A DNA stretch of 32,000 nt from Candidatus Iainarchaeum sp. (lineage in GTDB: Archaea > Iainarchaeota > Iainarchaeia > Iainarchaeales > CSSED10-239). Below, piece by piece: positions 3,816 to 5,843 of this stretch (positions are counted from its first letter, which is position 1; each line of letters opens with the position of its first letter). Both the position numbers and the translations under genes were made by a program. Where the stretch lies: positions 3,232 through 35,231 of the forward strand of contig JAQVTI010000011.1 in NCBI GenBank assembly GCA_028700115.1, written 5' to 3'. The notes beneath the pieces are model-generated. The model searched no databases. It saw only the letters and a list, made by a program, of their open reading frames with translations, and had not been told where the DNA came from.

Positions 3816-4397
3816 ATGATTATTAAACAAATTTCTAAAAAAGAAATTAAAAATGCAGACTTATTTCAACAGGCTATATTAAATCCAAATAAATGTAAAA
3901 GATTTAGACCTTGGTCTGTAGTTTATAAAAATTTTTTAAGAAATCCTTCTTTATTTATTGGTGCATATGATAAAAATAAAATAATAGGAATTGTTTTTGG
4001 GTATATTAAAAAAAATAAAGTTTTATTAGGAGAAATGGCTATTTCTAATGATTATCAAAGAAAAGGTATTGGTAGAAAACTTATTTTTGAATTTGAGAAG
4101 AATGTAAAAAAATTAAATAAAAAGTATATTGAATTAGGGGCTTTTGGATCTGCTCAAAATTTTTATTTAAATTTAGGTTATACTCCTATATTATTTGTTC
4201 AAATTTATAAAAATAAAGTTAAAAAAAATTATAATAAGTTAAATTATAATGTATTAAAAGAAACTAATTATATTGATGCTAAGAGGTTATTTATTAAAAT
4301 TGATAAATTAGATGATAAACTAAAACAAAAAGCAGAAAAAGATTTTAATGCTTATAATGTAATCTATTTATTTAGAAAAAATTTTGATTTTGGATAA
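3816..4397 (+). CDS. GNAT family N-acetyltransferase
   Basis: Acetyl-CoA-binding motif YQRKGIGRKLI (Q/RxxGxG/A) and FYLNLGY near the C-terminal part of the fold. A TATA-like ATATATTTGTA lies 25 nt upstream of the ATG, suggesting a leaderless transcript. Confidence 0.75.
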   Translation: MIIKQISKKEIKNADLFQQAILNPNKCKRFRPWSVVYKNFLRNPSLFIGAYDKNKIIGIVFGYIKKNKVLLGEMAISNDYQRKGIGRKLIFEFEKNVKKLNKKYIELGAFGSAQNFYLNLGYTPILFVQIYKNKVKKNYNKLNYNVLKETNYIDAKRLFIKIDKLDDKLKQKAEKDFNAYNVIYLFRKNFDFG

Positions 4398-4597
4398 ATT
4401 CTAATTATATCTTCTATAATTTTTATAATTATTTTATTTTTTTCAATTTTATATAAATTTTTATTATATCTTATTTTAGTTATTTTATTATATATTTTTT
4501 TACAATCTTTATTTTTATAATCTAAAATAATGTTTTTTTTAGTAAATATAAAGTATATTTTATTTAAATCTTCTCTTAATATCATTTTGAAATACAT
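4364..4597 (-). CDS. Hypothetical 77-aa protein downstream of the radical SAM gene; possible PqqD/RRE-like peptide-binding partner (speculative)
   Basis: Stop-free 77 codons in AT-rich DNA. Its ATG (4595-4597) sits 1 nt after the second in-frame TGA of the extended radical SAM frame. Size and position match RRE/PqqD-type partners, but I cannot confirm similarity by eye. Confidence 0.35.
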   Translation of the reverse strand: MYFKMILREDLNKIYFIFTKKNIILDYKNKDCKKIYNKITKIRYNKNLYKIEKNKIIIKIIEDIIRIYPKSKFFLNK

Positions 4598-4598
4598 A

Positions 4599-4691
4599 TC
4601 AATCTTTTTTTAAACAATAATCTATATTATCTAATATATTATCTTTATTTAATATATCTAATTGTATTGGACATCTTGCGCATTTTTTTCA
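4599..4691 (-). other. In-frame TGA (4689-4691) followed by 29 sense codons to a second TGA (4599-4601): read-through/recoding site or recent nonsense mutation
   Basis: Hand translation past the stop gives ...IKGCPDCKL[TGA]KKCARCPIQLDILNKDNILDNIDYCLKKD[TGA]. The extension adds 3 Cys and completes a C-x2-C-x5-C-x2-C...C pattern. Confidence 0.6.
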
Positions 4692-5645
4692 TAATTTACA
4701 ATCTGGACAACCTTTTATTTGTTGAATTCTCCAATTTTTAAATTGTATTGAATTCCATATTTTATTTATATTATTCAAGTTATTTTTAATTTTGTAAGAA
4801 TAATTTTTAGCAAATCTTGTATAAGGTAATAAAGGACAAGGATATGCTATTAAATTGGTAGAAATATGATAATAATGAATTCCAGCACCGCATTTAAAAT
4901 AATAATCTTTTTTATCTAATGTTTTAAAATCAGATAAATCTAGTTCTATGTTGTTTATAATGCATTCCTTATTTAATTTTTTAATAAATTTTTTATCTTT
5001 AAAAAGTTTAATAATTTCATTAGAATTTATATTTTTATTATTATTTTTTCCTCTTCCTTTAGATAATAATGGGCCTATAATCCATTTTTTTACATTTAAT
5101 TTATTTAAAAATTTAGGAAATTCTAAAATTTCTTTATAATTTTTGGAATGAATTAAAGTTCCTACAATCGTATATATTTCATCTTTTTTTAGTTGATTTA
5201 ATGTTTTTAAAGTATTATTGTATATTTTTTTATTTTTTTTAATTGGATCTCTTATATATAAATGAGATTGAGGATTAGTTCCATCTAAAGATATTTTAAA
5301 TGCTAATAACATTTTTGATTTTTTAATTAAATTATATTTTTTTAAAGAGAATAATCCATTTGAAGTTAAATAATAAGGTAATTCTATATGATCTAAATAT
5401 TTAATTAAATTAATAAATTTAGAATATTTTGTAGGTTCTCCACCAGATATATTGACATATAATATATTTGTTTTTTTATAATAAGCTAATATTTTTTTTA
5501 AAATATTAAATGGAATTTCTTTTTTTATAATTCCATATGATCCATAACAATGAATACATTTTAAATTACAATCAGAAGTTATACTTATATGAACATGTAA
5601 TGGTGCTTTTTTTGCAAACAATTTATCTTGGTATTTTTTATCCAT
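4689..5645 (-). CDS. Radical SAM enzyme with a C-terminal SPASM/twitch-like Cys-rich domain (peptide-maturase type)
   Basis: CNLKCIHC is a CxxxCxxC radical SAM cluster motif and NISGGEP is a GGE SAM-binding motif. C-terminal Cys residues: FKCGAG...YPC...GCPDC, continued after the TGA. Confidence 0.85.
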   Translation of the reverse strand: MDKKYQDKLFAKKAPLHVHISITSDCNLKCIHCYGSYGIIKKEIPFNILKKILAYYKKTNILYVNISGGEPTKYSKFINLIKYLDHIELPYYLTSNGLFSLKKYNLIKKSKMLLAFKISLDGTNPQSHLYIRDPIKKNKKIYNNTLKTLNQLKKDEIYTIVGTLIHSKNYKEILEFPKFLNKLNVKKWIIGPLLSKGRGKNNNKNINSNEIIKLFKDKKFIKKLNKECIINNIELDLSDFKTLDKKDYYFKCGAGIHYYHISTNLIAYPCPLLPYTRFAKNYSYKIKNNLNNINKIWNSIQFKNWRIQQIKGCPDCKL

Positions 5646-5650
5646 TTTAA

Positions 5651-5776
5651 TTAAAATTGATTATGTGCACAAGGTACTGTATCTGCTCTTTTTAATATAT
5701 TTAATTTTATATTTTTTTTATTTATTTCTATTTTTTTTGATTCAATATTTGTTGCAATATTTGCAGTTGACATCAT
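5651..5776 (-). CDS. Candidate RiPP precursor peptide, 41 aa (not in ORF track): MMSTANIATNIESKKIEINKKNIKLNILKRADTVPCAHNQF
   Basis: GAGGTGA (5781-5787, minus strand) lies 4 nt upstream of the ATG. A palindromic TTTATAAA TATA-like box is at 5817-5824. The stop at 5651-5653 is only 5 nt before the radical SAM ATG (5645). There is a single Cys near the C-terminus. Confidence 0.55.
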   Translation of the reverse strand: MMSTANIATNIESKKIEINKKNIKLNILKRADTVPCAHNQF

Positions 5777-5843
5777 ATTATCACCTCAAATTATATATTA
5801 ATTGATCTACATAATGTTTATAAATCTTTTTATTATATTATTT

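Follow-up and report, generated by a model that had tools for sequence, protein, structure and literature searches.

A 32,000-nucleotide stretch of the genome of Candidatus Iainarchaeum sp. (contig JAQVTI010000011.1, assembly GCA_028700115.1; the whole stretch is hereafter called the window) carries on its minus strand a 41-codon open reading frame (ORF), a gene for a radical S-adenosylmethionine (SAM) enzyme with a SPASM-type C-terminus, and a 77-aa partner ORF, which are met by a convergent gene for a GNAT acetyltransferase. These four genes are likely to form a leader-guided peptide-modification cassette of the type that produces peptides synthesized by the ribosome and modified after translation (RiPPs), and the copy in this genome has most likely been inactivated recently. 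Judged by sequence comparison, the cassette is a new family within a known kind, that of the leader-guided radical SAM-SPASM RiPPs. A precursor, a maturase, and a small partner had been proposed in an earlier, sequence-only reading of the window, and all of its statements on coordinates, strands, spacings, and motifs proved correct when read directly from the window. The DPANN setting it assumed was also right, as the source organism belongs to the phylum Iainarchaeota of DPANN.

Conservation of the peptide gene and its cassette

The peptide, radical SAM-SPASM, and partner genes were found in the same order and on the same strand in ~11 further archaeal lineages with 22-48% guanine plus cytosine (GC), including a near-identical contig labelled Iainarchaeum and a Nanoarchaeia metagenome-assembled genome (MAG). 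The cassette was found here only in archaeal MAGs, and the two that carry taxon labels are DPANN. The sequence-only reading would have had to be given up if the small ORF were not kept beside related enzyme genes. In these lineages, it lay directly 5' of orthologous and of more distant radical SAM-SPASM genes, amid otherwise different flanks. At each of the close loci examined (L001-4, L005, L006-8, L010/13, L011/12/15, L016, and L017), an ORF of 41-46 codons was followed by the enzyme gene and by an ORF of 77-86 aa, and the flanking genes varied by locus (TBP, an ABC/FtsX transporter, a large unannotated 715-aa protein, or DUF2207). An exhaustive hidden Markov model (HMM) search of 1.84 billion representatives yielded a graded wider clade (P0076-P0081, 304-183 bits), the contigs of which showed the same architecture as the close loci. 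The wider-clade loci were L024, L026, L028, L029, and L030, together with L025, which holds only enzyme and partner. The peptides of both groups are listed in Table 1.

The length of the peptide ORF is unremarkable by itself, since 24 ORFs of at least 30 aa occur within 5.5 kb of DNA with the 22.6% GC of this window. The ORF remained open at 41 codons across six lineages, with pairwise ratios of nonsynonymous to synonymous change (dN/dS) of 0.17-0.64 at synonymous differences (pS) of 0.26-0.75 per site. The GGTGAT core of its Shine-Dalgarno (SD) sequence was invariant in all seven aligned loci, 3-5 nt ahead of the start codon, and a TATA-like box (ATTTATAAAT / ATTTAAATA) stood at a constant distance 5' of the SD sequence in the same 7/7 loci. 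Because A/T octamers are frequent in DNA of 22.6% GC, the conserved position of the box, and not the match itself, counts as evidence for a TATA element. A chance ORF was ruled out by the conservation, the dN/dS values, and the retention of both upstream elements. These results indicate that the 41-codon ORF is a real gene, given its conservation, a dN/dS below 1, and the invariant SD sequence and TATA-like box. No second copy of the peptide was found within the window.

In the peptide of the window, S-T-A-N-I-A makes up the N-terminal leader motif, and C-A-H-N-Q-F, with the stop codon right after it, the C-terminal core. Conservation in the family is concentrated in the N-terminal motif and the last six residues, and the division into leader and core drawn from the sequence alone thus holds in outline. 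The family peptides share the leader motif T-[AL]-[AG]-[IL]-A and a Cys-containing C-terminal core, with at least one Cys among the last 5-10 residues of each. The core reads C-x-H-N-Q/E-[Y/F/H]-stop in 8 of 11 peptides, and a C-x-H-N-Q-aromatic core is present even in L028, where the enzyme is ~30% identical to that of the window. Among the cores seen (CxHNQ[YFH], CSTCPW, CTINQF, CLSGM, and CYGCSYSPLS), Cys is the sole residue kept family-wide, and its retention across the wider family points to sulfur chemistry.

Table 1. Features in and around the cassette (window positions) and peptides of related loci
Feature	Position	Strand	Remarks
TATA-box-like element TTTATAAA	5817-5824	-	40 nt 5' of peptide ATG
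Shine-Dalgarno sequence GAGGTGA	5781-5787	-	4 nt 5' of peptide ATG
Peptide gene MMSTANIATNIESKKIEINKKNIKLNILKRADTVPCAHNQF, 41 codons	5651-5776	-	Precursor candidate
Radical SAM/SPASM gene, 318 codons to TGA	4689-5645	-	ATG at 5645
In-frame TGA nonsense codon	4689-4691	-	Within SPASM CX2CX5CX2C (C-P-D-C-K-L-*-K-K-C-A-R-C)
In-frame continuation of the enzyme past TGA, 29 codons and stop	4599-4688	-	Read-through translation
Partner ORF, 77 aa	4364-4597	-	Same strand as peptide and enzyme
GNAT acetyltransferase	3816-4397	+	Convergent; Pfam Acetyltransf_10/7/1
CPBP/Rce1-like gene	3132-3761	+	Convergent
DUF2207 membrane protein	5844-7679	-	Gly-rich C-terminal tail GSGSSGSAGGFGGGMGGGGAGAR
Decapeptide-repeat protein	235-1086	+	PF25296, 259 bits
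1663-aa ORF, then ~ten ORFs (163-746 aa)	11074-25285		No significant Pfam match
Second DUF2207_C protein	22160-24400		Weak, sub-threshold
F420-0:gamma-glutamyl ligase (CofE-like) domain	26586-27782	+	Over 398 aa
Clade A peptide, L001			MISTAAIAINTESKKIRVNNKEIHFKLLKKMESNECSHNQY
Clade A peptide, L005			MISTAAIAVNTESRKLKINKKEIKFNKLVRFNSDTCGHNQY
Clade A peptide, L011			MISTAAIAVNTESKKIKVKGKEIKFKVLSKFDSDECGHNQY
Clade A peptide, L010			MISTAAIAINTESKKIKNNDKRVVFKLLKNMESMPCAHNQH
Clade A peptide, L016			MISTAAIAVNTESKDVKKNDEQVNFKLLKNMESVPCSHNQY
Clade A peptide, L006			MNYIRTAGIATKIDNKQQYNLDKKDITKILEILKKTNTMECSHNEY
Wider-clade peptide, L024			MAIKGNIRTASIMSEIGNVNETKTNLLKSLRHIEMMTCSTCPW; 48% GC
Wider-clade peptide, L028			MEKTKIEEKYMIGPGTAGLAQRIREDYKKTEELDILKRNYVLTCDHNQH; 39% GC
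Wider-clade peptide, L029			METKSLKANTLGLATTMATKKAPIKQLKIVQNKKIDTCTINQF; NCBI label Candidatus Nanoarchaeia archaeon
Wider-clade peptide, L026			...KAEYKGCLSGM; 28% GC
Wider-clade peptide, L030			MINPGTAGLATLMKGRIGKSRKKTRILKIFTCYGCSYSPLS

The enzyme, its premature stop and the adjoining genes

The stop codon of the peptide gene is separated from the enzyme ATG by 5 nt. In GenBank, the three genes are MDD3976188.1 (the peptide, as a hypothetical protein), MDD3976187.1 (a radical SAM protein of 318 aa), and MDD3976186.1 (a hypothetical protein). Membership of the enzyme in the radical SAM superfamily was clear (Pfam Radical_SAM, PF04055, 58.2 bits against a cut-off of 29.5). Its CX3CX2C motif (CNLKCIHC) lies at residues 26-33, and C26, C30, and C33 were invariant in 11 aligned sequences. 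In the same 11-sequence alignment, which includes distant relatives, seven SPASM cysteines (C252, C270, C313, C316, C322, C325, and C344) were also invariant. They follow the pattern C...C - CX2CX5CX2-3C - C of the SPASM domain (PF13186 / TIGR04085), which provides for two auxiliary [4Fe-4S] clusters. The read-through enzyme has 348 aa, ends at 4599, and completes this seven-Cys motif. The Pfam SPASM alignment (PF13186) spans the stop, covering residues 252-325, and PF13186 hits are on record for the distant relatives P0077-P0081.

A search of 5.8 billion proteins returned five close clusters (P0002-P0006, 340-345 aa, 47-61% identical), after which the score fell from 277 to 74 bits. The NCBIfam hits of the window enzyme were weak (TIGR04133, 75 bits; NirJ2, 71; AhbD, 65; MftC, 65; PapB, 60; HxsC and WgkB were also among them), and none of the named NCBIfam cut-offs was passed, all scores being far below. 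In agreement with the peptide-maturase assignment of the sequence-only reading, the enzyme clustered with no non-peptide family. It has no fused N-terminal domain, as the radical SAM motif begins at residue 26. Since it thus lacks an N-terminal RiPP recognition element (RRE), a discrete adaptor is to be expected, by analogy with PqqD/PqqE and MftB/MftC. When the core of an AlphaFold2 (AF2) model was compared with the PDB by Foldseek, SkfB, SuiB, anSME, and PqqE matched; because the model is poor (predicted local distance difference test, pLDDT, 60), this ranking says only that the enzyme is a radical SAM-SPASM protein like these four. Among solved structures, the thioether-forming SkfB ranked first in sequence as well as in fold and was followed by several radical SAM enzymes that form no thioether.

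The cysteine motifs recognised from the sequence alone stand, but a true nonsense codon interrupts the SPASM motif and cuts the enzyme short, and the cassette of this genome may be dead. The in-frame TGA falls between C316 and C322 and ends the protein after 318 codons, so that three of the seven SPASM cysteines (C322, C325, and C344) are lost. Homologues reach ~27 residues past this stop, and the segment after the TGA aligns with their C-termini with all Cys retained. At the TGA position, every close homologue has Arg (AGA or CGA); in distant relatives the residue is Lys or Phe, and Cys does not occur there. Another public assembly, GCA_028691725.1 (locus L009), which is 99.98% identical to window positions 1-5456, has this TGA as well. 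A sequencing error is accordingly unlikely, with the reservation that the two assemblies may share samples.

Other enzyme genes of the family are damaged as well. In L016 (contig Ga0074198_1000002, 977 kb), the radical SAM gene (2501-3535) has a TCA-to-TAA change at the invariant Ser119, and the peptide, partner, and GNAT genes are intact. In L025, the radical SAM gene (665-1750) has an in-frame TGA in its SPASM motif (LGCK*CKNHNKCNRC), a GGA-to-TGA change at the conserved Gly of C-x-G-C, and no peptide or precursor ORF was found upstream of this gene. In L024 (1293-1473), the frame with CNLKCAHC is open, and the segment from the stop before it up to the motif contains no ATG, GTG, or TTG, so that translation either begins at a non-canonical codon or has lost its start. 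The window, L016, and L025 thus carry three independent one-base nonsense mutations. Over ~12 lineages, three or four such hits agree better with a dispensable accessory function than with an essential cofactor and suggest that the function of the cassette is accessory.

A small protein is encoded 3' of the enzyme gene at every locus. The 77-aa protein of the window and its orthologues had no match in Pfam or NCBIfam and no PDB sequence match. The sequence-only reading had placed it with PqqD, and this assignment failed in all four sequence tests: PF05402 (PqqD/RRE) gave no hit at E up to 10 with 8 + 3 partner sequences, hhalign against three PqqD sequences gave a probability of 0.1, and profile searches with both partner subtypes returned family members only and no PF05402-annotated protein. 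The protein is RRE-like only in its predicted fold topology. In a confident AF2 model built from an 8-sequence alignment (pLDDT 91.5), three strands lead into three to four helices, an order that resembles RRE topology. The best full-length Foldseek matches in the PDB were the TbiB1 RRE-leader complexes, at a non-significant level (TM 0.43-0.46, E ~0.8). We infer from the model, and by analogy, that the partner may work like an RRE by binding the leader; we make no claim that it belongs to the PqqD family.

The partner and GNAT genes converge with a 34-nt overlap (4364-4397; 21 nt in L001 and L011), and a GNAT orthologue, 55-59% identical, occupies the same convergent overlapping position at all close loci. 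The gene beyond it varies, being CPBP in the window and AglB in L001. In L028, a 267-aa partner-GNAT fusion is encoded directly 3' of the radical SAM gene (3606-4409). The partners of L026, L029, and L025 are matched by its residues 1-72 (E 6e-7 to 3e-4) and the window GNAT by residues 73-264 (31% identity, E 3e-21). Of all the observations, this fusion speaks most strongly for a GNAT that acts on the same peptide. The cassette thus probably has the acetyltransferase as its fourth component, for tailoring or immunity. The sequence-only reading of the neighbourhood had passed over this conserved gene and had instead linked the CPBP gene to immunity. That gene adjoins the cassette in the window and is elsewhere near it only in L024, at a distance of 1.1 kb and accompanied by a SpoU gene, which has a place near the cassette in the window too; this is read as leftover synteny and not as a functional link. 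As CPBP is not conserved with the cassette, it was rejected as its immunity gene.

Further genes were noted around the cassette. An FtsJ-like SAM methyltransferase is a recurrent neighbour in L025, L026, and L029 (the Nanoarchaeia-type clade), at the place taken by GNAT in the Iainarchaeota-type clade, and in L006-L008 a Methyltransf_25/11 gene adjoins the cassette instead. The DUF2207 gene directly 5' of the cassette in the window is not kept beside it in other loci. Elsewhere in the window, the decapeptide-repeat protein also has an NCBIfam match to the DotG/IcmE repeat region. The CofE-like domain is unexpected in a reduced DPANN genome, and its spread over about twice the profile length implies a large insertion.

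Proposed modification and alternative explanations

In the proposed mechanism, the 41-aa peptide would be expressed from its own promoter. The partner, with its predicted winged-helix, RRE-like fold, would bind the leader segment T-[AL]-[AG]-[IL]-A and offer the radical SAM/SPASM enzyme the C-terminal hexapeptide C-x-H-N-Q-[Y/F/H]. The enzyme, with one SAM cluster and two auxiliary [4Fe-4S] clusters, would abstract hydrogen from one of the residues that lie downstream of the Cys, the candidate donors being the alpha-carbon of the C-terminal aromatic residue and a side-chain carbon of Asn or Gln/Glu. The sulfur of the invariant Cys would then join that carbon to give a small C-terminal thioether macrocycle. 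Finally, the GNAT, probably brought in by the same partner, would acylate the peptide. A thioether ring followed by acylation is favoured because Cys is the only core residue kept family-wide and the thioether-forming SkfB is the top solved-structure match.

Several observations weigh against this proposal. The case for thioether chemistry consists of the conserved Cys and a weak similarity to SkfB, and the model of the enzyme is poor. On the read-through protein, the Pfam SPASM score was 15.3 bits, below the cut-off of 21.5, and the non-peptide families AhbD and NirJ2 score like peptide maturases. Neither by sequence nor by Foldseek is the partner significantly similar to PqqD/RRE proteins. 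Tight physical linkage of the overlapping gene ends, and not function, could be what has conserved the GNAT, and the partner-GNAT fusion was seen once only. The cassette has no conserved protease or exporter beside it; L005 alone has an ABC/FtsX system next to it.

The cassette could also make a RiPP without a thioether, in which a C-C cyclophane like those of triceptides and streptide links His or the C-terminal aromatic residue to Asn or Gln, or the C-terminus is oxidatively decarboxylated, and the Cys serves, for example, in metal binding. In the main clade, H, N, and Q/E are almost as conserved as Cys, and the aromatic-x-polar arrangement of H-N-Q recalls known three-residue cyclophane motifs. 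The occurrence of SuiB among the top structural matches and of HxsC and WgkB among the weak NCBIfam hits points in the same direction. However, the wider family loses H, N, and Q yet always keeps a Cys, and the enzyme that ranks first by sequence and fold, SkfB, is a thioether former. We therefore regard a product of this kind as unlikely.

It is rather more doubtful that the cassette makes a peptide-derived redox cofactor similar to pyrroloquinoline quinone (PQQ) or mycofactocin, in place of a secreted or structural peptide, with the H-N-Q-Tyr end cross-linked or decarboxylated and a small fragment released. Among named families, MftC and PqqE repeatedly reach the best scores with the enzyme and with its wider clade, and the absence of a fused RRE and the separate small partner are as in the MftC and PqqE systems. 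A highly conserved core with an aromatic end, comparable to the Val-Tyr end of MftA, and a single-copy gene in very small genomes would also suit a cofactor. Yet the scores are far under the family cut-offs (for MftC, 65 bits against 265), and genes like MftD/E/F or PqqB/C occur in no neighbourhood. The C-terminal residue varies (Y, F, H, W, or M), the core diverges in the wider family, and the three nonsense mutations in ~12 lineages argue against an essential cofactor.

A further explanation concerns the window copy itself. Selenocysteine insertion, an alternative genetic code, or efficient read-through could decode the TGA, and this genome would then have a full-length enzyme and an active cassette. 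The 29 in-frame codons after the TGA keep three cysteines and end where the homologues end, the TGA occurs in two public assemblies, and in L025, too, this Cys motif contains a TGA. Against this, the aligned residues are Arg, Lys, or Phe, never Cys, and a single base change from AGA or CGA suffices to produce the codon. The genetic code of the window is standard, with the 30 larger ORFs stopping with TAA (20), TAG (7), or TGA (3). TGA terminates two other window ORFs, and window ORFs of up to 1663 codons have no in-frame TGA, which excluded an alternative code with TGA read as Trp or Gly. No selenocysteine insertion sequence (SECIS) or other RNA family (Rfam) was found, and together with the aligned residues this makes selenocysteine unlikely. 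The TGA of L025 aligns with Gly (GGA), the gene upstream of it itself stops with TGA, and L016 has TAA, a pattern that fits independent nonsense mutations. Decoding of the TGA is thus improbable. Because the aligned residue is never Cys, no SECIS or Rfam family was found, and other window ORFs use TGA as a normal stop, the codon is read as a one-base Arg-to-TGA nonsense mutation. The 29 intact codons downstream indicate that the event is recent or the codon leaky. The enzyme gene of the window is probably a recent pseudogene, and its cassette inactive unless the TGA is read through.

That the enzyme acts on a non-peptide or large-protein substrate (AhbD/NirJ tetrapyrrole or anSME type) next to unrelated small ORFs is highly improbable: NirJ2 and AhbD are among its top NCBIfam hits (65-71 bits), but their scores of 71 and 65 bits stand against cut-offs of 500, no haem d1, sirohaem, or sulfatase genes lie nearby, the small ORF and the partner stay with the enzyme over 28-61% enzyme identity and changing flanks, and the peptide has its own conserved promoter and SD sequence immediately 5' of the enzyme gene.

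Significance and comparison with known systems

Beyond the modification cassette proposed here, we tentatively consider a wider scenario, which may well not hold. DPANN archaea of at least two phyla would share a lineage-specific RiPP pathway in which a divergent RRE-like adaptor that escapes PqqD models recruits a radical SAM-SPASM enzyme and a GNAT to one C-terminal hexapeptide. The product, a new cross-linked and acylated peptide, would serve at the interface with hosts or competitors of these symbionts, and the nonsense alleles would reflect ongoing loss or "cheater" dynamics in natural populations. As genomes of ~1 Mb keep few accessory genes, a peptide retained across phyla would hint at a role in obligate host interactions, and the recurrent nonsense mutations offer a natural handle on the dispensability of the product.

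To our knowledge, archaeal RiPPs are almost unexplored experimentally. Literature searches on radical SAM RiPPs of DPANN or Iainarchaeota and on the HNQY motif returned no description of this cassette family. Genome-mining surveys predict radical SAM-type clusters in DPANN, none of them characterised (PMC12144867), and a survey of ten Iainarchaeota MAGs reported no biosynthetic clusters at all (PMC9902471). The cassette is a compact target of ~2 kb, with a precursor family marked by a distinct leader motif and a core of six residues, a maturase family covered by no curated model, a partner that would escape current RRE detectors, and a GNAT that is linked to the cassette and in one case fused to the partner. 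It gains in interest because it has so far been met in archaeal MAGs alone, which are DPANN where labelled, and because a partner-GNAT fusion occurs, and it loses some through the probable inactivity of the window copy. In annotating the window, the enzyme gene is best treated as a probable recent pseudogene.

All tests by sequence and gene content for membership in the mycofactocin, PQQ, sactipeptide, and ranthipeptide families failed. The mycofactocin system resembles the cassette in its short precursor with reactive residues at the extreme C-terminus and an aromatic end, in a radical SAM-SPASM enzyme of ~340 aa without fused RRE, and in a separate partner of ~80-100 aa, and MftC is among the best-scoring named families for the clade. 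It differs in that the window enzyme reaches 65 bits against the MftC (TIGR03962) cut-off of 265 and its relatives at most 124 bits, and in that the core is C-x-H-N-Q-[Y/F/H] in the cassette and G-V-Y in MftA. Moreover, MftD, MftE, and MftF occur in no cassette neighbourhood, the partner goes unrecognised as PqqD/MftB, the cassette has a linked GNAT, and the cassette hosts are archaeal, and DPANN where labelled. PQQ biosynthesis follows the same logic of a peptide, a discrete RRE, and a SPASM enzyme, and PqqE recurs among the weak hits. However, the cassette lacks the Glu-x3-Tyr motif, PqqB, and PqqC, PqqE is not among the top hits of the window enzyme and its relatives reach at most 123 bits against 381, and hhalign of the partner against PqqD finds nothing.

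Of the solved structures, that of the sactipeptide maturase SkfB is the closest to the cassette enzyme by sequence and by fold. As in SkfA, a single Cys N-terminal to a hydrophobic or aromatic acceptor would form one small ring in the cassette peptide. SkfA has a Cys4-Met12 bridge, which the C-terminal Met of the L026 peptide recalls. SkfB and AlbA differ in having a fused N-terminal RRE of ~100 aa that is absent from the cassette enzyme, and SkfB has a twitch-type domain with a [2Fe-2S] auxiliary cluster, not a full seven-Cys SPASM domain. The HMM scores of the sactipeptide maturases are also far from their cut-offs (AlbA, 51 against 850; SkfB, 42 against 300; StsB, 38 against 625). PapB, which makes the ranthipeptide freyrasin with Cys-X3-Asp/Glu thioethers, is likewise a radical SAM-SPASM enzyme, and the C-x-x-x-[Q/E] spacing of the cassette core matches CX3D/E. 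It differs in score (NF047865, 60 bits against a cut-off of 340) and in that PapB precursors repeat the motif, whereas the cassette peptide has a single C-x3-Q/E at its C-terminus, where the acceptor would usually be Gln and not a carboxylate.

In GNAT-tailored RiPPs (N-acetylated or acylated lasso peptides, goadsporin, microviridins, and selidamides), the GNAT is likewise encoded with the precursor and the core maturase. The cassette differs from them in pairing the GNAT with a radical SAM-SPASM enzyme and, in L028, in fusing it to the RRE-like partner. No description of such a partner-GNAT fusion was met in the literature, in which no search was aimed at it. Taken together, these comparisons indicate that mycofactocin and PQQ are closest to the cassette in architecture and that sactipeptides and ranthipeptides are closest in likely chemistry.

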